This document shows, in pieces, positions 2,994 to 45,518 of a stretch of 64,000 nucleotides of DNA. The notes beneath the pieces are model-generated. The model was not told where the DNA came from, searched no databases, and was given only the letters and a program-made list of their open reading frames with translations. The position numbers and the translations under genes are program-made. This DNA is from Candidatus Hodarchaeota archaeon (lineage in GTDB: Archaea > Asgardarchaeota > Lokiarchaeia > Sigyniarchaeales > SOKP01), in the NCBI GenBank assembly GCA_048886685.1, contig JBHLKM010000020.1, positions 1 to 64,000 on the forward strand, read 5' to 3'. Each line of letters opens with the position of its first letter. Position 1 is the stretch's first letter.

Positions 2994-4298
2994 ATGGAGT
3001 TTATACCGACTAAAAAGAATTTCCATCATTATTTGTATTTTCTTTTTGGGCAACAATTTTCAATGTTAGGCTCGTTAATTGTAGGCTTTGTAATAACTTG
3101 GTGGCTCACTATTGAAACAGGAAGCGCAGTTATTTTATCGATCTCAGTCTTTTTAATGTTCATACCCCAAATTGTAGTAACACCTTTTTCAGGAGTTCTA
3201 TCAGATAGATGGAATAAAAAAACTATAATAGCAATTTCCGATTCGATGCAAGCTGTAGTAACCTTTTTACTTTTTGCTTTCTTTCTTTTTGATTTAAAGA
3301 ATGTTTGGCTTGTTTTGGGGATAAACACATTTAGAGCAGGATTATTTGCATTTCAATACCCCACAGTTCAATCTCTTATCCCCATTATGGTACCAAAGGA
3401 TAATTTAAGTAGAATTAATGGATTTAATTTCCTATTCTCTGGATTAATTTATAGTATAGGTCCAATAATAGCAGCAACATTATTGGCTTTTTTTCCAGCT
3501 TCTCAAATTTTTCTGTTAGATATTATAACATTTGGGATTGCTCTAGTCCCGTTAATCCTTATAAAAGTTCCTACTGTAAATCATATAATAACAGAAGAAG
3601 CTACAGATAAGTCATTTGTAAAAGATTTCAAAACGGGTTTATTGACAATCAAAATGGTTCCTGGTCTCTTTGCAATGATAGCATTTGCGATGATTTGGAA
3701 CTTTATACATAGACCTTGGGCAGTACTAATGCCTTACTTTGTAAAGTATACTCATAATGGTTCTGCTTTTGATCTTGCTTTGCTTATGGCTATGGCTCAA
3801 GTGGGGAATATATTGGGCTCTTTAATAATGTCAATTAAGAAGACATGGAAACATAAAATAAAAATAAACATAATTGGAGCATCGATATTCTTTCTTTGTC
3901 AAATACCTGCTATCCTCGCACCAAAAGGTAATTTCATTCTTATGATACTAGTGCTTTTCCCTGCATGGGTTATTATGCCAATTACGGTCTCAACATATCT
4001 TGCAATCTTACAAATAGTCGTTTCTAAAGATAAAATTGGAAGAATAATGTCAATTGATCATATGATTTCTATGGCAATTGCACCTATAGGGGCGCTTATT
4101 GCGGGACCATTAGCAGAAATTATAGGAATAATTAACTTATTCCTAATCTTTGCTATTCTTGGGATAATCCATCCATTTTTCATTTGGTTCTTTACAAAAA
4201 TCAGACAACTTGAGATCATCGATCAAAAACTTATGAAAGAAGCTGTAGAAATTCCAGAAGTAGAAGAAGTAATGGAAATTGCTGAAGTTATAGAATAA
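2994..4298 (+). CDS. MFS transporter (DHA3/MefA-like efflux family)
   Basis: About 12 hydrophobic segments; GQQFSMLGS at the N-terminus; MFS motif A GVLSDRWNKK. Confidence 0.85.
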   Translation: MEFIPTKKNFHHYLYFLFGQQFSMLGSLIVGFVITWWLTIETGSAVILSISVFLMFIPQIVVTPFSGVLSDRWNKKTIIAISDSMQAVVTFLLFAFFLFDLKNVWLVLGINTFRAGLFAFQYPTVQSLIPIMVPKDNLSRINGFNFLFSGLIYSIGPIIAATLLAFFPASQIFLLDIITFGIALVPLILIKVPTVNHIITEEATDKSFVKDFKTGLLTIKMVPGLFAMIAFAMIWNFIHRPWAVLMPYFVKYTHNGSAFDLALLMAMAQVGNILGSLIMSIKKTWKHKIKINIIGASIFFLCQIPAILAPKGNFILMILVLFPAWVIMPITVSTYLAILQIVVSKDKIGRIMSIDHMISMAIAPIGALIAGPLAEIIGIINLFLIFAILGIIHPFFIWFFTKIRQLEIIDQKLMKEAVEIPEVEEVMEIAEVIE

Positions 4299-4917: not shown

Positions 4918-5382
4918 ATGGAAGTATTTGAAAAACAGCTAAAAGAATTTGAAAGAATAGATGATTTATTAGATAAAAAAGAACTCTTTTCAAGCGAAAA
5001 ATTATTTAAATGTATATTAGGATTAAACAAAACTGGATCAAAGGTATTTGGATATATCCTTAAAAATAATGATGCAAGTACTTCTGAAATAGCATCTGAA
5101 TTAAATATGGAAAGAAGCTCAATTCAAAGAGCCATTCAAGATCTATCAAAATTACATCTCATTGACCGCAAGTCTATCTCAATGAAAGAATACAAAGACG
5201 ACGAGTCCAAATCTAGTTCTAAAAAGCAAGGATATTTATATGTCTACAATGCTAAAAATATAGAATCGATAAAAACACAATTTAAGGAATTATTAGATAA
5301 ATGGTATAATTCAATGGTCAAGTACATCGAAAATCTTGAAAATTTATGTGAATGCTGTGGTTTTAAATTTGAGCCCTGCTAA
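4918..5382 (+). CDS. Winged-HTH transcriptional regulator (TrmB/MarR-like) with Cys-rich C-terminus
   Basis: KCILGLNKTGSKVF...STSEIASELNMERSSIQRAIQDL HTH; GYLYVY wing; tail LCECCGFKFEPC. Confidence 0.8.
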   Translation: MEVFEKQLKEFERIDDLLDKKELFSSEKLFKCILGLNKTGSKVFGYILKNNDASTSEIASELNMERSSIQRAIQDLSKLHLIDRKSISMKEYKDDESKSSSKKQGYLYVYNAKNIESIKTQFKELLDKWYNSMVKYIENLENLCECCGFKFEPC

Positions 5383-5401
5383 TTTTTGAGAAAAAAAGTA
5401 T

Positions 5402-5767
5402 TTATTTTGCATTTTCATCTTCTTGCATAATACCAAGCTTATTCCCCTCAGTATCATTGAACATATAGAAGTAACCGACGCCTGGTACTGTAATTTTGGG
5501 AGATACTATTGTTCCACCAAATTTTTCTACTTTAGACTTAGCATCTTCTACTGAGGATACACTTATATAATTAAAGACTTGATCAGCTGACTCTTCTCTT
5601 TTTTGTAGACCCCCGTTTATTCCCTCTTCACCCTCCTTTCCAGCCTCAATTACCCAATATTCCCCACCTTCCCATTTTTCAATTTTCCAATCAAAAACTT
5701 GTTCATAAAAACTTTTTGCTCTTTCAATATCGTCAGCATTAATTTCAAAATGAACAATCTTTGGCAT
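5402..5767 (-). CDS. VOC/glyoxalase family protein
   Basis: VHFEINADDIERAKSFYEQVFDW and DTEGNKLGI motifs. Confidence 0.92.
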   Translation of the reverse strand: MPKIVHFEINADDIERAKSFYEQVFDWKIEKWEGGEYWVIEAGKEGEEGINGGLQKREESADQVFNYISVSSVEDAKSKVEKFGGTIVSPKITVPGVGYFYMFNDTEGNKLGIMQEDENAK

Positions 5768-5995
5768 ATTACCACCTCTATCTTGTAATTATTCAATAAT
5801 AATATGATTTCATATATAAAACAATACACTTTACATTCAATTATAAATTTTGCCAAGAAAAGACGAAAATATCTAAATATTATCTTGAGCACATCGTAGT
5901 ACATACTTTAAATCGTGAAAGTGTTCTTTCAAGAAGATCTTCTAAATACCTAAAAAAAGAATTGTATATATTAGACCTTAAATTATCTTTAAAAC

Positions 5996-7117
5996 ATGAT
6001 TAATCCTATGTATGAAAAACTTGCACATTTAGTGGTAAATTACTCATTGCACATTAAAAAAGGAGAAAGGGTTATTATTGATAGTCTTGCGATAGCTGAG
6101 GAGCTTATACGCGCTATATATGTTGAAGTTCTAAAAGTTGGAGCTCATCCGTATTTGGAAATAGAAATTGAAGGAATAAATGAGTTATTTTTTAAATATG
6201 CTTCTGAAGAACAATTATCATACTTTGATAATGCCTCCAAATTGATTTATAAAGAATTTGATTGTCTTATTTGGATCAGAGCAGACTATAATACAAAACG
6301 AATGAGCATAATAGATCCTAAGATCATTGCTAAGCATCGCGGTTCCGAAAAACGAAAGGAGTTCTTAAAAATGCTCCATGAAAGACAAATAAAGGGTGAA
6401 TTCAGGTGGGTTTCTTTCCCGTTTCCTTGCAACTCTTTTGCCCAGGATGCAAATATGGACTTGCTTTCTTATATCGATTTTGTAAGTAAGGCCATGTTTC
6501 TTGATAAAGAAGATCCTATTCAAGAATGGAAAAATTTGGAAAGAAGTCTACAAAAATATGTTGATTACATAAATAAATTCGATAAAATTCGTGTGTTGGG
6601 AGAAGATACAGATTTGGAGTTTTCCGTGAAGGGAAGAAAGTGGCTTAGTAGCTGCGGACACATCAATTTACCAGATGGAGAAATCTATACAGGACCAATA
6701 GAGGATTCTGTTAATGGGAGGATAAGGTTTTCTTATCCGGGGATCCATTTAGGGAAAGAGATTGAAAATATTTATTTAGAGTTTAAGGATGGGATCGTAG
6801 TGTCAGCATCAGCTCAAAAAGGTGAAGATCTTCTCAACGAAATACTTAAAATTGAGAATGCAAATAGAATGGGAGAATTTGCCATTGGGACCAATTATGG
6901 GATCACTCAATTTACCAAAAATATGATGTTTGATGAGAAAATAGGAGGTACTTTGCATTGCGCTCTGGGTGATGGTTTTAAAAACACTGGTTCAAAAAAT
7001 GAGAGTGCAATACACTGGGATCTTTTAAAGGATATGAAAGTACCAGGTTCAAGGATCCTAGCAGATGATGCAGTTGTTTATGAGGAAGGTAACTGGGTAC
7101 TTCCCAATAAAAATTAA
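5996..7117 (+). CDS. Aminopeptidase, M29 (AmpS/AmpT) family
   Basis: NLPDGEIYTGP, GEFAIGTN, FDEKIGGTLHCALG and SAIHWD motifs. Confidence 0.93.
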   Translation: MINPMYEKLAHLVVNYSLHIKKGERVIIDSLAIAEELIRAIYVEVLKVGAHPYLEIEIEGINELFFKYASEEQLSYFDNASKLIYKEFDCLIWIRADYNTKRMSIIDPKIIAKHRGSEKRKEFLKMLHERQIKGEFRWVSFPFPCNSFAQDANMDLLSYIDFVSKAMFLDKEDPIQEWKNLERSLQKYVDYINKFDKIRVLGEDTDLEFSVKGRKWLSSCGHINLPDGEIYTGPIEDSVNGRIRFSYPGIHLGKEIENIYLEFKDGIVVSASAQKGEDLLNEILKIENANRMGEFAIGTNYGITQFTKNMMFDEKIGGTLHCALGDGFKNTGSKNESAIHWDLLKDMKVPGSRILADDAVVYEEGNWVLPNKN

Positions 7118-7145
7118 TGCTTAGATTAGAATTCATTAATGAAAA

Positions 7146-7186
7146 TTAGACCTGGTTTTACCATAATGGTAAATACCAGGATCTAA
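7146..7186. repeat. Near-perfect ~40-bp palindrome/hairpin
   Basis: TTAGA-CCTGGT-T-TTTACCAT-A-ATGGTAAA-T-ACCAGG-A-TCTAA. Confidence 0.7.
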
Positions 7187-7226: not shown

Positions 7227-8291
7227 ATGAATTATTTCACTAAAGAGAGACTAATCTCCACATTAAAGGATTATACAAAGTTCATAGAATTAAAAGCCAA
7301 TGAAAGTTCCATAATTATTTCAGAATACGGAGGAAGACCCTTAGGAATATTTCCCAAAGAAAATTGTTATAATTTATTATGGGTAAATCCTCATATTAGG
7401 GAAGCCATTAAAGCAAGAAGTCATGAAATTGGGGGAGATCGATATTGGATAAGTCCAGAAAGAGATTTCTTTTATAAACAGCCTGATACATTTACAGATT
7501 GGTTTTGCCCTAACGGACTAGATCCCGCAAGTTATGAAATCCTTATGGATTTAGAAAATTCCTGTACGGTTTCAAGTGGAGTTTTTGTTACAAACCAAAG
7601 AACTAAATTAGGATACCAAGGGGAAATAACTCGTCAATTCAAACTCATAAAAGAACCTTATTCTACGGGTATAAGTTATTGTGGAATCGAATTTGTAGAT
7701 GACTGTGTCTTTTATAGGCCGAATTTGAAAATTAATGGTTGGAGTTTGGCAACAGTAATAAGTGGTGGTACTGAATCTCCGGGTACAGTTCTAGTACCCA
7801 CAAAGGCAAACCCAAATCCACTTTCTTATTTTAGGATTATTCCTGAGGATAGATTGAAGATTGAGGATAATTATGTAACATTTAAAATTGATGTTGATGA
7901 TATTTATAAACTCGCGATTCGACCTGAAGATATTGATTACAAGAGAGCTGCTAAGATTGGCTACATGTTGAAAATTCCTCATTCTGATGAGTATGGTTTC
8001 ATCGTTAAATTATCTGATGACATTCCAAAAAGTCAGAACGAGTGTTTTGATGTTTCGAGAGACCATCCTGACTCAGAGATTGGTGTTATTCAATCTTATA
8101 ATGCTGAATCCCCCGATAAGTCATTGCTTAATTTTGGGGAAATAGAGCTACAATTAAATCCTTTTAGAACCATTGATAATGCTTCACATGGTAAAGCTAA
8201 ACATCAGCTTTTTGCATATATTGGTTTTAAAGAGGAGATATTAATAGCCGTAGAAAAATATCTAGGAATTGAAAATCCATTCTTATTCTAG
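7227..8291 (+). CDS. Conserved hypothetical protein (DUF6786-like, beta-rich)
   Basis: 354-aa ORF; YGGRPLG and GGDRYWISPE resemble DUF6786-type motifs (recalled, not searched). Confidence 0.5.
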   Translation: MNYFTKERLISTLKDYTKFIELKANESSIIISEYGGRPLGIFPKENCYNLLWVNPHIREAIKARSHEIGGDRYWISPERDFFYKQPDTFTDWFCPNGLDPASYEILMDLENSCTVSSGVFVTNQRTKLGYQGEITRQFKLIKEPYSTGISYCGIEFVDDCVFYRPNLKINGWSLATVISGGTESPGTVLVPTKANPNPLSYFRIIPEDRLKIEDNYVTFKIDVDDIYKLAIRPEDIDYKRAAKIGYMLKIPHSDEYGFIVKLSDDIPKSQNECFDVSRDHPDSEIGVIQSYNAESPDKSLLNFGEIELQLNPFRTIDNASHGKAKHQLFAYIGFKEEILIAVEKYLGIENPFLF

Positions 8292-36692: not shown

Positions 36693-38393
36693 TTGAAGAG
36701 AGATTTGGTAACCTTAAAAAATTTAAGATCTGATAAGAGAAAACTAAGCTTATTAATCAGTATTTCAATAGTATTTATAGGCGTAATCCCCTTACTTATT
36801 TTAACCTTTATTCCCGAATTGAAGAATCCATACACGATTGAACCATTAGCACTCGAGTCAGAGGATGGTGTATATATTAGTGCTTTTAAATACACACCAA
36901 AAGGAGCAAAAAGTCATGGTGGAATAGTGGTTGGACATGGCTTTTTTGGTAGTAAACTCAATATGCAACCTTTAAGCATAGAACTTGCCAAACGAGGATT
37001 TACCGTCATAAACATTGATTTTCGCGGACATGGGGCTTCTGGAGGATACTTTCGTCGCGGTAAATTAATATTAGATCTAATGGCAGCAATTGATTACCTG
37101 GAGTATAATTTACCTTATATTACAGAAATTGGGCTTGTTGGGCATTCATTAGGCGCTTATGAGGTACTAGATTTGTCAGAATCTTATCCTGATAGAATTA
37201 ATGCAACTGTAGCAATTGGAGCAGTATCTGACAACATTATGAATGTATCTAATTTTCTTTTAGCGGCTGGTGTATACGATTCTGGGTTAACTGAAGATAA
37301 GATCCTTAAAGTTTTAAAGTTGTATACAGGAACGGAAGATGTAAAAGTTGGAGAATTGTATTATGGAGACTTTAATAACGGAAATAACACTAAAGCTTAT
37401 ATTAGCCCATTTTCAGGACATTTAACTGAAGTAGTAGATTCTGCTATTATCTATCAAACAATTCAATGGTTTGAACAAGCTTTTCACGGAGAAAAAGGGA
37501 GAAATATTTTCATAACTGCTACAGCCTTATTAATTTTTTCTTATGTCTCCTTTGCAGGGATTATTGTCCTTAATTCAATATTGGTTGTTTATATTAGCGA
37601 TTATTTTTTTAAAAAAAAAGTAATTTTAACTGAGAAACATATAATAGAAAATTTGGAGAAAGCTTCGATAAAAAAATTAATATTATACTACACTGTTCCC
37701 GTAGAACTAATTCAAATTTCATTTTTTTTATTTCTTTCACGTATTTCCACTGAAGCTGTCGCCTTTTCTACAACAAGCATAACTTTGTTACTTATTATTG
37801 GAGCCACAATTGGATCATTCATCATATATACTTTTCTTCTATTGAACTGGGAGGAAAGGTTCCACTTCAGAGATCCGTTTATTATGATTAAAAGAATGTG
37901 CTCCGTAAAACCTGCTCGTTCCTTATTGTTTGGATTTATAATTGCTTTATTATCATTATTATCAATGGCAGCAATTTGGCATTGGTCTGTGCAAAATACC
38001 TTACCAACTATAAGAGGTGTTGGTAGAATGGTATTATTAACTCTCCTATCATTCCCCTTTTTTCTAATTAGAGAATTCTATTTTAGGAGTGTTCAAGGAC
38101 AATTGAAAAATTTAAATCCATATGAAGAATACACTGTGATGTTAGGTATTGGAATTTTCATGGATAATTTACTTATTGTTTTAATCTTTATTATTGGGAA
38201 AATTAATTTGGCATATTTCCCACCATATGCACTTTATTTATTAGCATGGGTTATTTTTTCGATTATACAAAACAGCACAGTTACCTGGGTTTATATAAAC
38301 TCCGGGCGGAATATACTAGGATCGACGATCTTCATAAGTATTCTCTATTCATGGATGATTGTTGTCTTTTTCCCTTCTTATGGATTTCTATAA
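36693..38393 (+). CDS. Membrane-anchored alpha/beta hydrolase with multi-TM C-terminal domain
   Basis: HGF, DFRGHG and GHSLG nucleophile motifs; many C-terminal hydrophobic helices. Confidence 0.8.
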   Translation: MKRDLVTLKNLRSDKRKLSLLISISIVFIGVIPLLILTFIPELKNPYTIEPLALESEDGVYISAFKYTPKGAKSHGGIVVGHGFFGSKLNMQPLSIELAKRGFTVINIDFRGHGASGGYFRRGKLILDLMAAIDYLEYNLPYITEIGLVGHSLGAYEVLDLSESYPDRINATVAIGAVSDNIMNVSNFLLAAGVYDSGLTEDKILKVLKLYTGTEDVKVGELYYGDFNNGNNTKAYISPFSGHLTEVVDSAIIYQTIQWFEQAFHGEKGRNIFITATALLIFSYVSFAGIIVLNSILVVYISDYFFKKKVILTEKHIIENLEKASIKKLILYYTVPVELIQISFFLFLSRISTEAVAFSTTSITLLLIIGATIGSFIIYTFLLLNWEERFHFRDPFIMIKRMCSVKPARSLLFGFIIALLSLLSMAAIWHWSVQNTLPTIRGVGRMVLLTLLSFPFFLIREFYFRSVQGQLKNLNPYEEYTVMLGIGIFMDNLLIVLIFIIGKINLAYFPPYALYLLAWVIFSIIQNSTVTWVYINSGRNILGSTIFISILYSWMIVVFFPSYGFL

Positions 38394-38435
38394 AATAGAC
38401 TTTTACGGTATTAATAGTTTTAAATCGGTCTAGAA

Positions 38436-41258
38436 TCACTCCATAAATTCATATTTAATCTTTAAAGTAACTATGACATGAGGTTTTAATTCTATTTCAA
38501 GATTGTTCCGAGTTAAATTAGTTATTTCTGCTTTAATATTATTCTTAGGTTTCTCTTCAAGAAAATTAACTATTTCGGCATTTTCAATCAAGATTTTCTC
38601 ATAAAAAGCTAATCTTGCATTTTGAGATTTAGATGAAATATTATAAATTCTAATAATAATAAAATTTCCTTCCTCTGCTTTTTTCAGGGCACTTAATAAA
38701 ATACATTTATTATCTATTTCAAGAAACCGTAAGAAGGGAGGAAGATAAGACTCAATTTGGCTTGTTTTAGATCTACCAAAGTAGGAAACCATACCTGTTG
38801 GGTTTAACATAACTTTATTAGAAGTTCTAATAGCGCTTTGAGCCATTGCGGGAAACATTGGTTTTAATGTATTTATAAATTCTTTTGCTCTTAGATGAAT
38901 ATTTGAATCTAACCAGCTTGATTTAGATTCTGTAGTAACCGATATTTCAAAAGTATGGGTACCCAAACATTGTGCTCCTGGAGTTTTATAACCAGGACCT
39001 GCATGAGACTTTCTTGTACTGAAATCATCACGAGACAACCATTCAATACAGCGCAGAAGAGTTATAGCAAAAGTTATTGTTTTATCCTCATTAACGATTG
39101 CTTCATATTCTGGCAATCCAATATTTAATATAGCAAATGTTCTTAAATTGTCGCTGATTGACACAAAATCTTTTTGATGATTAGTAGGTAAAGGATTTTG
39201 AACCCAATTATCTGCTTTAGGTAATTCAACATTTCTGGGTACAACATAAAAATGACCATCAGCATGAACTACATCAGCTTTTATCTTAGTTGGGAATAAT
39301 ACACGAATTCTGTGATCTCGACTGTTATTTTCAATTATAATTTTAAAATCTATTCTCTTGATAGTTTTATATAGTGATATATAAACAGTTATTCTATTGT
39401 CAACCAACCAATCTTCTCTATTATATCGATCCTCTGTAAGAGAATGAGGAAGCTTTAGGTTTAACCTCAATTTGAAGGTTTTTTGAGATGGACCATCTAT
39501 ATACACAGATTTCTCAAAGAGAGCAGCGTCTTCAGTTGAGAATCTTAAATCTGTCTGATTCTCTTTTGGACCAGAAAAATCGTATTCATCCCCCCAATCT
39601 CCCACATCTTCGAATTCACATATTTTTTCATATATAATTCCCGTTTCCTTATCTTTAACGTTAATTAGACCATCTGATTTAATTTCAACAAGATAAAATT
39701 CATTTTCTAAGAATTCTTTACTAATTCTAAATTCTTCAGTCTTGGGATTAAAAGAGCTCTCAGACACTGTAGGAACCAGATAATAAACCCTATAACCTAA
39801 TGCGGGAACATCAGCTAGAAATGAGATTTTATGGCTAACTCCTAGCTTTCGTGTAAATCTTGGTTGTTCTTCAACAAGCCAATATTGAAATTCAATTTCT
39901 TCTTCATTAAAGTCAATTAATTTAATATTAAAGGGTAATTTTTCACCTTTTGTTCTTTTGGAGATGAAAGTAAACTCTACTCTATCTTGTCTTTTCCATG
40001 GAAGTGGATTAAAAACAATTAAAACATTACGATCTTCATAATTGGAATTAAGATTAACAAGTTCAGTTAAGTATAAAAATGAGTTTTTAAATACTTCTTC
40101 ACCTATTTGTTCTGCCCAATCAAAACGAGTTTTCATCTCATCATGAACCTCATCTATACTACAACCGCAAATACTATCATGTGGTGAATTTTTTTGCAAC
40201 CATTTTAGACCAGTTAAAATATAATTCTTTGGATATCTGAAATTTCCATATTTATCGAGTACCAAACTCATAGTTGATATTGGTTCAGTATATTTCTCAT
40301 ATAAATACTCTATTGCGGTATTTCTTTGTTTTATCCACATCCGTGCTGAAAGTACGCCAGACAAGAGAGGTGAGTATCTTCCTCCTCTCAATTCGCCTTG
40401 ATATTCTTTCAACTCGGCATTTGATTCCAGTACTTTATTAATATAATATTCAAAGTCTGCTTGCTCTAAATGAGTGTCAGGATATAATTTATTCCATTGA
40501 TCGATTATCATTGGAATTTCTGGGGTAACTTCTTCATGATCTACTCCATTATTTAATAGAACGTTAGGTGTTGCGACGTATTTCTCAAAATTTAATACAA
40601 GATTTTTTATTCTTCTCATTGCTGGTTTGAATTCTCCTTTTACAGTTTTTGTATTCAAATATGCTAGATTATGATAAGTTAAAATTAGATGTATTCCTAA
40701 TACAGATGCCGCATTACCAGGAGCATTCCATATAAATTCCATGTTTAAATTATTTTCTTCAAATTCATTACCAAATCCTCGCATAAATAATATTGAGGGA
40801 ATTTCACATCCACTTATTATCTGAGGTAATTGTGCAATGTGTCCAAAAGGATCCGGTATATATCCTGCTTTCATAACCTTACCGAATTTCCTGCTAATTT
40901 GATGTCCAATCATAATATTCCTAATTAAAGATTCACCACTAACAAGAAATTCATCAGGTAGTACATACATAGGACCAATTGAAAGCCTTCCTTCTTTAAC
41001 ATATTTTTTAATTTCCTCTTCTCGCTCTGGTCTTACTTCTAAATAGTCTTCGAGTATAATAGTTTGTCCATCGAATGTGAAGCTTTTATAATCCGGATTG
41101 GTTTTTAGGATCTTTAATAATTTATCCATCATAATCACAAGCCTAGCTCTAAATTCTTGAAATGGGAGGTACCAATCATGCTTTACATGTCAATCGTATA
41201 AAGTTTCACGGTCCCAATGTGTTTCTGGCACAATTATGATGTTCTTAGACGTAACCAT
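38436..41258 (-). CDS. GH38 alpha-mannosidase (mannosylglycerate hydrolase-like); predicted spliced CDS join(41205-41258, 38436-41174), 930 aa
   Basis: ATG 41258 gives MVTSKNIIIVPETHWDRE. After removing 41175-41204 the frame continues WYLPFQEFRARLV...DGQ...PDEFLVSGES...PDPFGH...NGVDH...HDSICGCS. The ORF-track call starting at 41138 lacks the Zn-binding HWD motif. Confidence 0.9.
41175..41204 (-). other. Candidate 30-nt bulge-helix-bulge (BHB) intron in a protein-coding gene
   Basis: mRNA fold: GAC-CGUG-AA^A-CUUUAUA-(CGAUUGACA)-UGUAAAG-CAUG-AU^U-GG. Cutting after nt 2 of each 3-nt bulge removes exactly 30 nt, including the in-frame UGA, and restores GAA-UGG (E-W). Confidence 0.82.
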
Positions 41259-41436
41259 AATATTATCAAAACTATTTATTATCTAAAATTGTTTAATTAT
41301 TCAATTGTAATTCTTGTTAGTTTAAATTATTTCTTCTCAGTGCTTATTATTGACAAGATTTAAATCTCTTAATCGGTAATCTAATAATTCTTCTCTCTAT
41401 TATGATTTATTTAAGTATATATTCTAATGATAAATA

Positions 41437-42615
41437 ATGGGCACAAAATACACTACTTTACAACTAATAAACGATCTTGAGAAAGGATTAGGTGGATTAT
41501 CTCAAGCCAGTACGTTATTGGGATTTGGTTCAACTTATTTATCTGATTTAAAGCAAAGAATAACAAATTCAAATGTTAAAGGTTATAATCCAAAATATAA
41601 GTTCTCACTAAGTAATTTAAATGTTTTTAAAGAAAACTTAGAAAGAAATATTGGAGAAAAAGGTGATTTTTGCTTATTTATGATAAATAAATATAGTAAA
41701 TGTAATAATGACTTAAAGCATTATTCAAGACAACAATATAGATCTACTCTCAATCCTAATTATTTTAAGAGAATTGATACTCTCGAAAAGGCTTATTGGT
41801 TAGGATTTTTATATGCAGATGGTGAAATAAGAAATAAGTATAAAGAAAAATACTGGTATAGAATTTCTGTAGAACTCTCAGTCAAAGATAGAGATCATCT
41901 TGAAAATTTTTGTAGAGCCATTGGTCTAATCCCTGCTGAATTAATAAAGGAAAGAGAAAGATATAAAAAATATAATAATAAAATAAAGAAATATCGAATG
42001 GCATATGTACGATTCAGATGTAAACCAATGGTTAAGGATTTATTGAATATTGGCTTTTCAAGTTCAAAAACATTAAAGAAATCAATCCCCAAAATATTTA
42101 AAAAAAGTAATGATTCAACTTTTGGTAGGAAATTATCATTAGCATGGCTCCTTGGCTATTATGATGGTGATGGGAATTCGAATAGTACAAGAATTACTTC
42201 ATCTAGTAAAAATCTTCTAAATGAAATTAAGTCTGAATTTAATATTAAATTCGATGTTAAACAACAGTATGATAAAGGTGAAAAATCTCGTCTTGATGGT
42301 GTAATATCCACAAAACCTCATTGGAGATTAACATTGGGAGCATCTTTATTTAATGAGATGATTCAAAATTATCAAGATAGTATGAAAAGAAAGAGAAGAA
42401 TATTTAAAGAGAAAGATATGGTATCATATAACCGCTTGAAAAAGAAAGTGTTAAATAAAGAAAATTTACAATATTTAGTTGGTACATATAAGATTATTTC
42501 ATTAATAAAGAGATTTGATGTCTCTACAACTACTTTTTATCGCTTATGCAAAGAATGGAATATAAATACACCAAAAATGCGGAATCTAACTAAAAAAAAA
42601 ATAGAACTTTGCTAG
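41437..42615 (+). CDS. Free-standing LAGLIDADG homing-endonuclease-like protein (two motifs) with C-terminal HTH
   Basis: KAYWLGFLYADG and AWLLGYYDGDG motifs; very basic composition; C-terminal LIKRFDVSTTTFYRLCKEWNI HTH. Confidence 0.85.
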   Translation: MGTKYTTLQLINDLEKGLGGLSQASTLLGFGSTYLSDLKQRITNSNVKGYNPKYKFSLSNLNVFKENLERNIGEKGDFCLFMINKYSKCNNDLKHYSRQQYRSTLNPNYFKRIDTLEKAYWLGFLYADGEIRNKYKEKYWYRISVELSVKDRDHLENFCRAIGLIPAELIKERERYKKYNNKIKKYRMAYVRFRCKPMVKDLLNIGFSSSKTLKKSIPKIFKKSNDSTFGRKLSLAWLLGYYDGDGNSNSTRITSSSKNLLNEIKSEFNIKFDVKQQYDKGEKSRLDGVISTKPHWRLTLGASLFNEMIQNYQDSMKRKRRIFKEKDMVSYNRLKKKVLNKENLQYLVGTYKIISLIKRFDVSTTTFYRLCKEWNINTPKMRNLTKKKIELC

Positions 42616-42780
42616 TTCCTTCTCGATCTCAATGAGTTTCAGGAACAAGGATAATGTTATTCGCTTTCATAATATAGAGTTTTTAATTGAAAATCCTAAT
42701 TGAGATTATAAAAGAATACTTTAATAAAAATCAATTGGATCCTCTGCAAAACTGAAAAGAATAAAGTAATTATTTTTATT

Positions 42781-44301
42781 TTAAGAATTCAATATAGATT
42801 TTCCTATTACACTTGAATGCGGTTTCTTTCCTAATAAGCCTAATAAGGTGGGAACAATATCTGTAGTTTTACAATAATCTAATTCCAATTTAGGAATGTC
42901 TAGAGATCCTCCTATAATCAGTGGCACAAGCATTGAATTTCTGCTGGCAATATCATGCGAATAAGGAGAAACACCTTTTGTTTTTCCATGTTCATAATTA
43001 AAGTTAAATTCGCCCTCAGTAGAGACCATTATATCACATGAACGGGGATTTTTAAAATGACGGGGGAGTTGATCAATAATATTTATAAAATTCGTTTGAA
43101 AAGTTGTTCTTACCCACTCATCAATAGAATGAAATTTATTGTCCAGAAGAGCAGAAGATTTTTCATTTTTTACATAACCAAATAAATCTTCATCATCAAA
43201 CACATATTTGGTCATTTGATCTTTTCCTATCCCATAATATTCAATTCTCCCTTTCAGAATTTTATTATTTTTAATATATCTTCGTCCTAAATGTATAAGC
43301 CCTTTTTCAGCGGTACTAGCATCATCCTTATAATACATCAATTTCACTCCTGGAATGTCCCACAATATTTTAAATAAATCCAATTTAGATGTTCCTTCTC
43401 CACTTGTTTTGTAGTTCTTCATTTGATTAAGTGTGGGATGATGATACCATGTATCTCCCTTAAAGTTGAAAAATCCTATACCCCCAAGATTTGCATCAAA
43501 ATCACCCTCTCCTTTGATAGGATTATAGGGTTTTAGTCCCTTTTGATGAAAGAATGGTTCAAGATCAAAAATATTTGGAGCTTTATAATTACCGTGATCA
43601 GAAGTAATAGCAATTGCGGTATCTTCATAGCATCCTACGTTCTTAAGTGTTTTAATTAAAGATCCTATAAATTTATCACATCTTAATACTAAATTAATGT
43701 AGTCAGGATGATCAAATCCTTTTTCATGCATAAATTCATCAGTATGTGGAATATAACCTACAGAAACTTTTGGAAGTTCCATATTTGGGAAAACTTCTTT
43801 AGGATTTTTGTAAATATCTTCTATTCTTTTTAAGATCAATTCCGGTTTAAATTCTTTTGAAACAGTGAAAGTAGAACCTCTATATAAGAAGCTTGTTACG
43901 CTTAAAAAATTCCCCTCACCTGCTTGTTCAAATATTGTTTTAACATGTTTGCCAATGTCTTTATTTATTTTTAATACGTCTCGTCGCTCACTGTAATTAC
44001 GAATGAAAGGTGGCTTCTTTTTTTCTGAGGGAGGAACTGTACGATCAATCCAATGATAATTGGGGACCCCACTTCCCTCTCTGGGAAAAAATCCAGAATT
44101 TGAACCCGTTATTATATCTGCATAACAAGGTAAAGTAACACTGGGAAATGACGTAACGGTATTTTGACATGAAACACCATTAATAGCGAGTTGAGAAACG
44201 TTTGGAAGATTTCCCTTGTCCATCCATTTGAATAAATGTTCTGCTCGCACATCGTCAAGAATAATCAATATAACTTGGTTAACTTTCGCACTTCGGCTCA
44301 T
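42781..44301 (-). CDS. Alkaline-phosphatase-superfamily nucleotide pyrophosphatase/phosphodiesterase
   Basis: LIILDD, SFPSVTLP (Thr nucleophile), DEFMHEKG, TSDHG and DIVPTLL motifs. Confidence 0.88.
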   Translation of the reverse strand: MSRSAKVNQVILIILDDVRAEHLFKWMDKGNLPNVSQLAINGVSCQNTVTSFPSVTLPCYADIITGSNSGFFPREGSGVPNYHWIDRTVPPSEKKKPPFIRNYSERRDVLKINKDIGKHVKTIFEQAGEGNFLSVTSFLYRGSTFTVSKEFKPELILKRIEDIYKNPKEVFPNMELPKVSVGYIPHTDEFMHEKGFDHPDYINLVLRCDKFIGSLIKTLKNVGCYEDTAIAITSDHGNYKAPNIFDLEPFFHQKGLKPYNPIKGEGDFDANLGGIGFFNFKGDTWYHHPTLNQMKNYKTSGEGTSKLDLFKILWDIPGVKLMYYKDDASTAEKGLIHLGRRYIKNNKILKGRIEYYGIGKDQMTKYVFDDEDLFGYVKNEKSSALLDNKFHSIDEWVRTTFQTNFINIIDQLPRHFKNPRSCDIMVSTEGEFNFNYEHGKTKGVSPYSHDIASRNSMLVPLIIGGSLDIPKLELDYCKTTDIVPTLLGLLGKKPHSSVIGKSILNS

Positions 44302-44423
44302 TATTATCTAATATTTGATAAATATTTATATAAATTTTTAATAACATATTGATGTAAAGTATTTGAATTTTAATTAAAAAAACTCTAACATTAAATTAGG
44401 ATTTTGAAATTTGGAAACTGACC

Positions 44424-45518
44424 ATGGAAACTATTCACAAGGTACACTTCAAAAATTCATCTGATATGCATGAACTTAAGTCCAATTCGATTGATTTAAT
44501 GATTACTTCACCACCTTATCCCATGATTGAGATGTGGGATTTATTATTTTCTTCCTTAAATGACAAAATTAAAGAGGCTCTCGAAGAAGGGAGTAGTAAA
44601 AGAGCATTCAATTTGATGCATAAGGAACTCGATAAAGTATGGAGAGAAGTAGCACGGGTACTAAAACCTGGGGGAATAGCTTGTATAAACATAGGAGATG
44701 CAACTAGAACTATTGGAAAAAATTTCCAATTATTCCCAAATCACGTCAAAATAACTAATTCTTTTCTTAATTTTGAATTTATTGAATTACCTTCAATTTT
44801 ATGGAGAAAACCAACAAATAGTCCAAATAAATTCATGGGTTCAGGGATGTTACCCCCAAATGCTTATGCTACCCTTGAGCACGAATATATTTTGATATTT
44901 AGAAAAGGTAAAAGGAGGAGGACAATACCCCCAAAATCAGAAAATCGCTATAATAGTGCTTTTTTTTGGGAAGAGAGGAATACATGGTTTTCTGATGTAT
45001 GGGATGATATAAGAGGGATTAGCCAACAAATAAATCAAAATAATAATAATCAAAATTATTTAAGAAATCGTTCAGCAGCTTTTCCCTTTGAAATTCCATA
45101 TCGTTTAATTAATATGTTTTCAATCTATGAAGATATAGTGTTAGATCCGTTCTGGGGTACAGGTACTACTTCATTAGCTGCAATTGTGTCAACCAGAAAT
45201 TCAATAGGTTATGAATTAAAACCTAATTTCATGGATGTGTTTAAAAAAAGTATCTCTAAAATTAAACAATTAAATTCTGAAATTAACAATTACAGGTTAA
45301 ACCACCATGTTGAATTTATTGATAGATACAAAAAACAAAACAAAGAGATTAAATATAAATCAAAATATTATGAATTTCCTGTTATTACAAAACAAGAAAC
45401 AAATATCTTATTTTATTCAGTAAAAAAATATGCCGAAATCCAAAATAAATTTATAATTAATCATGAAAAGTATCTATTAAAGAGTAATATAGATACTTTT
45501 CAATATCCAAATAATTAA
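44424..45518 (+). CDS. Site-specific DNA methyltransferase (N4-C/N6-A, beta class), apparently orphan
   Basis: Motif IV TSPPY precedes motif I DPFWGTGTT; also LKPGG and HEYILIFRK. Confidence 0.92.
   Translation: METIHKVHFKNSSDMHELKSNSIDLMITSPPYPMIEMWDLLFSSLNDKIKEALEEGSSKRAFNLMHKELDKVWREVARVLKPGGIACINIGDATRTIGKNFQLFPNHVKITNSFLNFEFIELPSILWRKPTNSPNKFMGSGMLPPNAYATLEHEYILIFRKGKRRRTIPPKSENRYNSAFFWEERNTWFSDVWDDIRGISQQINQNNNNQNYLRNRSAAFPFEIPYRLINMFSIYEDIVLDPFWGTGTTSLAAIVSTRNSIGYELKPNFMDVFKKSISKIKQLNSEINNYRLNHHVEFIDRYKKQNKEIKYKSKYYEFPVITKQETNILFYSVKKYAEIQNKFIINHEKYLLKSNIDTFQYPNN

Follow-up and report, generated by a model that had tools for sequence, protein, structure and literature searches.

A probable composite homing element with a LAGLIDADG endonuclease gene and a 30-nucleotide mini-intron in an alpha-mannosidase gene of Lokiarchaeia

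The 64,000 nucleotide (nt) sequence analyzed here (the window) comprises positions 1–64,000 of contig JBHLKM010000020.1 from Candidatus Hodarchaeota archaeon. It contains a GH38 alpha-mannosidase gene that is interrupted within the conserved residues HWDREWY, i.e. at HWDRE/WY (a slash marks the point of interruption or cleavage in motifs). The sequence at positions 41175–42619 is probably one composite homing element at this site and consists of an antisense LAGLIDADG homing endonuclease gene, a spacer, an exon 1 of its own and a 30-nt mini-intron of the bulge-helix-bulge (BHB) type. The evidence is comparative and concerns the anatomy of the locus, the insertion site, the association of gene and intron, transfer of the element as a block, covariation in the intron and selection on the protein. 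A previous sequence-only reading of the locus proposed collaborative homing, in which an intron without an open reading frame (ORF) is mobilized in trans by a neighboring free-standing endonuclease gene. Co-occurrence of the two elements and their joint movement as a block support this proposal. The source names of homologous proteins assign the organism to Lokiarchaeota/Promethearchaeota. The genome that contains the window is termed G000 (4.4 Mb, 47 contigs); other G and L labels designate the genomes and loci compared with it, and L084 and L085 are metagenome contigs.

The mannosidase gene starts at position 41258 on the minus strand. In reading order it encodes MVTSKNIIIVPETHWDRE, ten extra codons (TLYD*HVKHD, with an in-frame TGA), and then WYLPFQEFRARL followed by approximately 900 residues that match the GH38 domains of Pfam (Glyco_hydro_38N/C/mid). 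Taking out exactly 30 nt restores HWDREWY. Genome G003 has an intron-less allele and represents the empty site. In a BLASTN comparison, window segments 38001–41177 and 42620–45000 match G003 sequences that abut at G003 positions 8151 and 8153; thus positions 41175–42619 are a single insertion of 1445 nt. Read in the sense of the host gene, the insertion displays the antisense endonuclease gene, the spacer, a second, cassette-specific version of exon 1 (MV.SK.) and then the mini-intron. At the ...GAA codon, where the intron is inserted, homology to native alleles breaks off.

A relic of the original exon 1, together with native upstream sequence, is found directly beyond the endonuclease stop codon in G000, where the distance is 4 nt, and also in G004, G119 and L084. 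The relic has acquired a stop codon in G000, has altered His and Thr codons in G004 (MKPNNIIIVPEAQWDRE), is heavily decayed in L084 and is intact in G119. G119 and the nearly isogenic G130, whose flanks are 90–95% identical, represent a filled and an empty site. The G119 relic exon 1 is identical to the working exon 1 of G130 at 45/45 nt, up to GAAT; the G119 insertion is 1515 nt long and lies at GAA(T)/TGG, with exon 2 resuming at TGGTATCTCCC. This pair places the junction within one base of the same site, and in four lineages the left end of the insertion falls no more than one base from where the intron is inserted.

The sequence-only reading described an ORF-less intron beside a free-standing gene. 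The adjacency is confirmed: there are 178 nt between the mannosidase start and the divergent two-motif ORF, the distance that had been given, and 232 nt between the intron and the endonuclease ATG, where approximately 230 had been estimated. However the gene is not merely a neighbor, as all of these parts belong to one insertion at HWDRE/WY that is flanked by relic exon 1. The 178-nt spacer presumably holds both promoters. In an alignment, the spacer regions of G000, G004, L084 and L085 cluster together and are separate from native upstream regions.

The relic could also be viewed as the true first exon, in which case the 1.45 kb sequence would be one large BHB intron containing the endonuclease gene. 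In favor of this view, the relic still adjoins its native upstream sequence, and the G119 copy is undamaged. This model is nevertheless rejected because the relics decay, i.e. they have deteriorated in G000, G004 and L084 and are deleted in G120, G108 and G140. In addition, no 5′ half of a BHB motif follows the relic, and all 18 intron-bearing alleles have a conserved, intact cassette exon 1. The large-intron model is therefore considered highly improbable.

These 18 alleles share the insertion codon and the 30-nt length of the insert. They come from the two metagenome contigs and from 16 genomes, which belong to four genera, among 152 in the order. The 16 genomes were detected with an exon-based pattern; an earlier pattern based on the intron had overlooked divergent introns beside the endonuclease genes of the genus labeled g28. 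Endonuclease orthologues were placed at eight loci (G000, G004, G108, G119, G120, G140, L084 and L085; the orthologous proteins P0002–P0017 are outside this count) and display 54–82% identity. At each of the eight, the orthologue lies divergently beside an intron-bearing mannosidase gene, and in L085 this pairing is kept though the gene on the far side differs. Sixty-one alleles were read through the junction. The endonuclease gene is present in 7 of 17 intron-bearing alleles compared with 0 of 44 intron-less alleles (hypergeometric p ~4.5e-5 by our own arithmetic; relatedness weakens the test), and the seven gene-carrying alleles occupy seven separate tree positions. The joint occurrence in relatives, suggested earlier as a check on the proposal, is thus found.

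The sequence-only reading also cautioned that stand-alone LAGLIDADG genes may be frequent in such genomes and that the adjacency may be fortuitous. This concern is not borne out, as G000 contains just two free-standing LAGLIDADG genes in 4.4 Mb, besides inteins, and all eight placed orthologues adjoin intron alleles. By our arithmetic, chance adjacency within 250 nt is expected in about 2 of 10,000 cases. The adjacency is not due to chance. An explanation by chance adjacency, or by a broken mannosidase gene with a random 30-nt insertion, can point to the AT-richness of the genome and to a non-significant result of minimum-energy folding (given below), but it is already contradicted by the comparative data: the site and length shared by 18 alleles, the compensatory changes, the intact host frames, and the eight-of-eight association in a genome background of two free-standing copies. 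It deserves the least credence of the explanations considered here.

One structural design fits all 18 copies of the mini-intron. The intron forms a hairpin of 8 bp with a 7-nt loop, and a central helix of 4 bp joins exon CGUG with intron CAUG or CACG (98.6% paired). Two 3-nt bulges, AA/A and AU/U, hold the cut sites, and cutting after the second bulge base excises exactly 30 nt. In the 18-allele alignment 94% of paired cells pair, none of 500 shuffles is as good, and five pairs display compensatory changes, all located in the 8-bp intron-side helix. By this covariation the mini-intron is a real structured RNA. The exon also participates: all intron-bearing alleles have the codons GAC CGT GAA (18/18 = GACCGTGAA), and intron-less alleles have GAT/GAC AGR GAA or GAT CGC GAA and are unable to form the central helix. 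An in-frame stop codon is present in about 15 of the 18 mini-introns, usually in the hairpin loop at intron nt 13–15 (window positions 41187–41192), which suggests selection against translation of the unspliced mRNA. A strict scan of the entire G000 genome (4.4 Mb) found no other 30-nt intron with the same geometry. A relaxed scan gave 14 additional candidates that look spurious; the reversed-genome control for it was uninformative, as it is without ORFs.

The endonuclease ORF encodes 392 amino acids (aa) with no internal stop codon. Two LAGLIDADG motifs are present, WLGFLYADG (D128) and LLGYYDGDG (D245). Residues D128, D243 and D245 are unchanged across 28 homologues, D128 and D245 being the catalytic Asp residues. 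The sequence matches Pfam LAGLIDADG_3 (PF14528) over the cut-off. An AlphaFold (AF2) model has a pLDDT (per-residue confidence score) of 88.5, and Foldseek matches it to I-AniI, bI3 maturase, I-OnuI, I-SceI and I-DmoI, with a probability of 1.00 for I-AniI, I-OnuI, I-SceI and I-DmoI; a profile search against sequences of the Protein Data Bank (PDB) gives I-HjeMI and I-AniI. Model and Foldseek matches display the two alpha-beta-beta-alpha-beta-beta-alpha core domains of the family, to which a helical domain is added at the N-terminus and a helix-turn-helix-like domain at the C-terminus. The ratio of nonsynonymous to synonymous substitution rates (dN/dS) among the orthologues is 0.13–0.28, and the protein is therefore under selection. 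With its invariant catalytic residues, its match to the LAGLIDADG fold and a dN/dS of about 0.2, the endonuclease looks functional.

Selection on the protein, the additional helix-turn-helix-like domains and the presence of bI3 maturase among the top structural matches would also suit a domesticated protein that has lost homing and serves as a DNA-binding regulator of the mannosidase gene or as a maturase-like splicing helper. Against this, neither catalytic Asp residue varies, the G004 gene is a pseudogene, ten intron-bearing alleles with intact mannosidase frames are without the gene, and its presence and absence alternate among near-identical host alleles, which is the behavior of a mobile element. 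Since the gene is decayed or absent beside intact mannosidase frames, it is not needed for splicing or expression. Domestication is judged very unlikely.

The second free-standing LAGLIDADG gene of G000 (G000:C16:73828-74616; L086 5628-6638) has 39% identity to the first, is without the N-terminal domain and shows no ATG near the start of the frame. It may be a decaying copy. LAGLIDADG_3 domains are found as well within long frames (1771 and 1190 aa) at G000:C1:320652-322529 and G000:C15:64024-64281. They probably represent inteins, of which C1 has two within a single host protein and C15 has one.

Transfer of the element as a block is seen in a comparison of G000 with G004. Nucleotide identity is 78–92% in a block that extends from position ~42600 to ~40900, and outside of the block it is 47–69% on the relic side and mostly 51–72% deeper in the mannosidase gene (one window has 78%). 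The stretch from the start of exon 2 to ~40900 alone shows 76–91%. At the protein level the endonucleases are 79% identical, the mannosidases 59%, and the products of neighboring genes 55–75%. In its first 60 residues the G000 mannosidase is nearest to those of G004 and G017, and past approximately residue 90 it is nearest to that of the intron-less G003. This switch of affinity within exon 2 marks a co-conversion tract, and the raised-identity block that includes it agrees with the joint spread by co-conversion envisaged in the sequence-only reading. In genus g28, the cassette alleles each stand beside a different intron-less sister (G119 beside G130, G120 beside G123, G140 beside G139, and G108 beside G127/G131), and their endonuclease genes are old lineages with a pairwise synonymous divergence (dS) of at least 0.95.

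G017 has the intron only. Its single exon 1 can be aligned with each of the two G000 copies, the relic and the cassette-borne one: the 5′ part and the upstream sequence are of the native type, and the 3′ end (GACCGTGAA) and the intron are of the cassette type. Such an allele would originate by repair via the cassette's own exon 1 or by a deletion that joins the two exon 1 repeats. Both routes would amount to mobilization of the intron in trans by a gene outside of it. The trans-mobilized intron proposed earlier accordingly finds its support in the ten alleles that have the intron without the gene and in the mixed native and cassette exon 1 of G017. The G004 endonuclease gene has three stop codons, and its decay and the losses elsewhere fit a cycle of invasion, fixation and decay.

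A further intron-only allele, that of G064, can be compared with L085 (L085 4001-5387 and L089 (G064) 4990-7149). Both flanks are 95–97% identical. Between them L085 has 1.39 kb, i.e. the endonuclease gene and spacer, and G064 has an unrelated 2.16 kb sequence.

Alleles with the intron but without the gene, ten in number and spread over four genera, could also be accommodated if the mobile endonuclease cuts elsewhere, e.g. in upstream intergenic DNA, and the mini-intron is an older resident that is co-converted as a passenger and confers no immunity. A passenger at a distance of 232 nt would be within reach, since co-conversion tracts extend into exon 2 for approximately 300 nt. However such a passenger leaves unexplained that the left end of the insertion matches the intron site within one base in four lineages and that the same design is present at a second host gene, CobA (described below). 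It also predicts that some orthologues lie by intron-less alleles, and 0 of 44 do. This explanation is unlikely, though less so than the other alternatives.

Several observations weigh against the interpretation as a composite homing element that protects and spreads its intron. The contamination estimate of the assembly is 8.4%. The endonuclease gene is absent from 10 of 18 intron-bearing alleles, where the intron persists alone. In G120, G108 and G140 the gene is truncated at the C-terminus, and the relic is gone where this C-terminal domain is lost; L085 also has no relic. The second free-standing copy, on C16, lies among JAB/MPN protein and response-regulator-like genes, with no recognizable interrupted neighbor or mini-intron among these. 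In the first 240 nt of exon 2 the intron-bearing alleles fail to group as a single clade. The single clade expected of one inherited block is rejected, as 14 changes are required on the tree. These can be read as numerous independent gains or losses in which the conversion tracts were short, and the lack of a single clade indicates that co-conversion tracts are often short. With respect to the RNA, the outer helix between the exons is weak, with at most 1–2 bp, and the BHB motif is therefore of the relaxed type. Relaxed BHB motifs are processed by the (alpha-beta)2 EndA, a heteromeric enzyme of broad specificity (PMC5829648). G000 encodes two EndA paralogues (C18:52942-53166 and C5:74654-74902) and RtcB, and the two paralogues are consistent with such an enzyme. 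Minimum-energy folding of the intron region is no better than that of shuffles (z = 0.24); covariation counts were used because the motif is too small for this test.

In the proposed course of events, the enzyme would cut intron-less alleles at or next to the junction of exons 1 and 2; that this junction is the target is inferred solely from the position of the insertion. The break would then be repaired from a cassette-bearing allele, and the products of such repair are seen in the alleles described above. If the end of exon 1 pairs with relic exon 1, the whole cassette would be copied. If it pairs with the cassette exon 1, the 30-nt intron alone would be copied, giving an intron-only allele; deletion between the two exon 1 repeats would be the alternative origin of such alleles. 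As the insertion point is the intron insertion site, the position implies that the intron would interrupt the recognition site and protect its own allele, i.e. with the mini-intron between them, the replacement exon 1 and exon 2 would not restore the DNA target. EndA and RtcB would excise the mini-intron from the mRNA, and the host enzyme would still be made. Finally the endonuclease gene decays or disappears and the intron stays, a stage that the intron-only alleles and the G004 pseudogene represent.

The same architecture is found at a CobA/BtuR adenosyltransferase gene. G003 and G035 have paralogous endonuclease genes (36–38% identity) that are flanked by an 82-nt repeat, which is exon 1 of the adenosyltransferase gene. 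The working CobA/BtuR copy has a 30-nt insert in the P-loop at GK/GK, located at positions 926-955 of the minus strand in L019 (G003:C115) and at 2953-2982 of the plus strand in L014 (G035:C22). Its geometry is that of the mannosidase insert: one bulge base, an 8-nt stem strand, a 7-nt loop, an 8-nt stem strand, a 4-nt central-helix strand and two bulge bases. Here again, the divergent LAGLIDADG paralogue adjoins the insert, and a relic exon 1 is found beyond the gene and ends 7–9 nt from the insertion site.

Translational GTPase genes are interrupted directly after GH(I/V)DHG. EF-1alpha-like genes at L024, L029, L097, L098 and L100 are broken at GHIDHG/K by inserts of 32–33 nt with an AUGG/CCAU central helix, and an aIF2gamma-like gene at L099 is interrupted likewise. 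In both types a LAGLIDADG paralogue is located approximately 200 nt upstream on the same strand. The sequence-only reading had named as a check whether other LAGLIDADG paralogues neighbor BHB-interrupted coding sequences; such neighbors are seen at the CobA, EF-1alpha-like and aIF2gamma-like genes and not at the C16 copy of G000. In SWM/MWNW of an AMP-binding (acetoacetyl-CoA-synthetase-like) gene there is a hairpin insert of 30 nt, at 257-286 of the minus strand in L034 (G010:C53) and at 3474-3503 of the minus strand in L035 (G023:C57). This gene was not accepted as a case of the same architecture, since the LAGLIDADG paralogue is about 1.1 kb away and its side relative to the gene differs between the two genomes. 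On balance, though with less assurance than for the mannosidase element itself, Lokiarchaeia seem to harbor a family of composite homing cassettes that would create and spread protein-spliced introns at the most conserved codons of genes, i.e. those of the GH38 mannosidase, the CobA P-loop, the EF-1alpha-like and aIF2gamma-like GTPase P-loops and the AMP-binding enzyme.

The coordinates of the features of the mannosidase locus are given in Table 1. An N6/N4 DNA methyltransferase gene at window positions 44424–45518 lies beside the phosphodiesterase gene and is kept in all relatives; no restriction partner for it is visible within the stretch read.

Table 1. Features of the interrupted mannosidase locus and its probable homing element (window positions).
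Feature	Position	Strand	Basis
Exon 2 of GH38 alpha-mannosidase (WYLPFQEFRARL... to stop)	38436..41174	-	Open frame; Pfam Glyco_hydro_38N/C/mid
Co-conversion tract, first ~300 nt of exon 2, common to other cassette-bearing alleles	~40880-41174	-	Identity profile G000-G004
30-nt BHB mini-intron ACUUUAUACGAUUGACAUGUAAAGCAUGAU, in-frame UGA in loop	41175..41204	-	Excision restores HWDREWY
Replacement exon 1 carried by cassette (MVTSKNIIIVPETHWDRE)	41205..41258	-	Arg codon CGT gives CGUG strand of central helix
178-nt divergent spacer, cassette sequence, unlike native mannosidase upstream region	41259..41436	.	Upstream-region alignment
Free-standing double-motif LAGLIDADG homing endonuclease gene, 392 aa	41437..42615	+	ORF, Pfam, fold model
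Entire 1445-nt insertion relative to intron-less alleles	41175..42619	.	BLASTN against G003 empty site
Relic of original exon 1 (MKANNIILVPETH*DRE; TGG to TGA)	42620..42670	-	Ends exactly at intron insertion site
Native mannosidase upstream region, stranded between phosphodiesterase gene and relic exon	42671..42780	-	Aligns to region from phosphodiesterase stop to mannosidase ATG in G003 and G017

Collaborative homing is known from phages. In cyanophage S-PM2 the free-standing F-CphI is located beside an ORF-less psbA group I intron (PMC6083498). As in that system, a free-standing endonuclease gene adjoins an intron that has no ORF and interrupts a conserved gene, the presumed target of the enzyme is where this intron lies, and both can spread by gene conversion, as judged here from sequence. 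Unlike the psbA intron, which is a self-splicing group I ribozyme, the intron in the mannosidase gene is a predicted protein-spliced BHB intron, and at 30 nt is far too short for such a ribozyme. The enzyme is of the LAGLIDADG and not the Endo VII-like type, the host is an Asgard archaeon and not a phage, and the cassette supplies a substitute for the first exon and leaves the original behind as a relic. Phage T4 mobE promotes homing in trans of the defunct I-TevIII and the nrdB intron (PMC2790892). There too, a neighboring free-standing endonuclease mobilizes an intron that is unable to move itself, and flanking sequences are co-converted; that case differs in its HNH enzyme, group I intron and phage host, and displays neither exon duplication nor BHB splicing.

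Archaeal rRNA and tRNA BHB introns encode LAGLIDADG enzymes internally, e.g. I-PorI. The mannosidase element shares with introns of the I-DmoI type the LAGLIDADG family, splicing by EndA and a ligase (here predicted) and conserved homing sites. In those introns, however, the ORF is inside an intron of a stable RNA gene; here it is located outside, in antisense orientation and beside a spacer of its own, and the gene with the intron is transcribed as an mRNA. Publications on BHB introns of protein-coding genes are, to our knowledge, essentially confined to cbf5 of Crenarchaeota, and a mechanism of their spread has not been described. The cbf5 pre-mRNA intron of Crenarchaeota is of the BHB type (PMC2738675). 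It resembles the mini-intron in being short, in residing in a protein-coding gene and in its patchy distribution of gains and losses; it differs in phylum and host gene, and no endonuclease gene or mobility mechanism has been described for it. Full-text literature searches found no paper that combines these cassette features in Asgard archaea, and a 2026 preprint on Asgard tRNA introns makes no mention of LAGLIDADG, homing or mRNA.

The mannosidase locus suggests how such introns may spread. An endonuclease-borne block would replace the first exon of the host gene, and a spliceable 30-nt spacer would destroy the target while the gene still works; intron-only alleles would remain after the enzyme gene is lost. 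If this is correct, collaborative homing, so far a property of phage group I introns, would extend to the protein-spliced introns of archaea, and intron gain in mRNAs would be driven by endonucleases in the closest archaeal relatives of eukaryotes. The locus also opens intron gain in the Asgard group to direct tests, and the enzymes of these cassettes are candidate site-specific nucleases for very conserved coding motifs.

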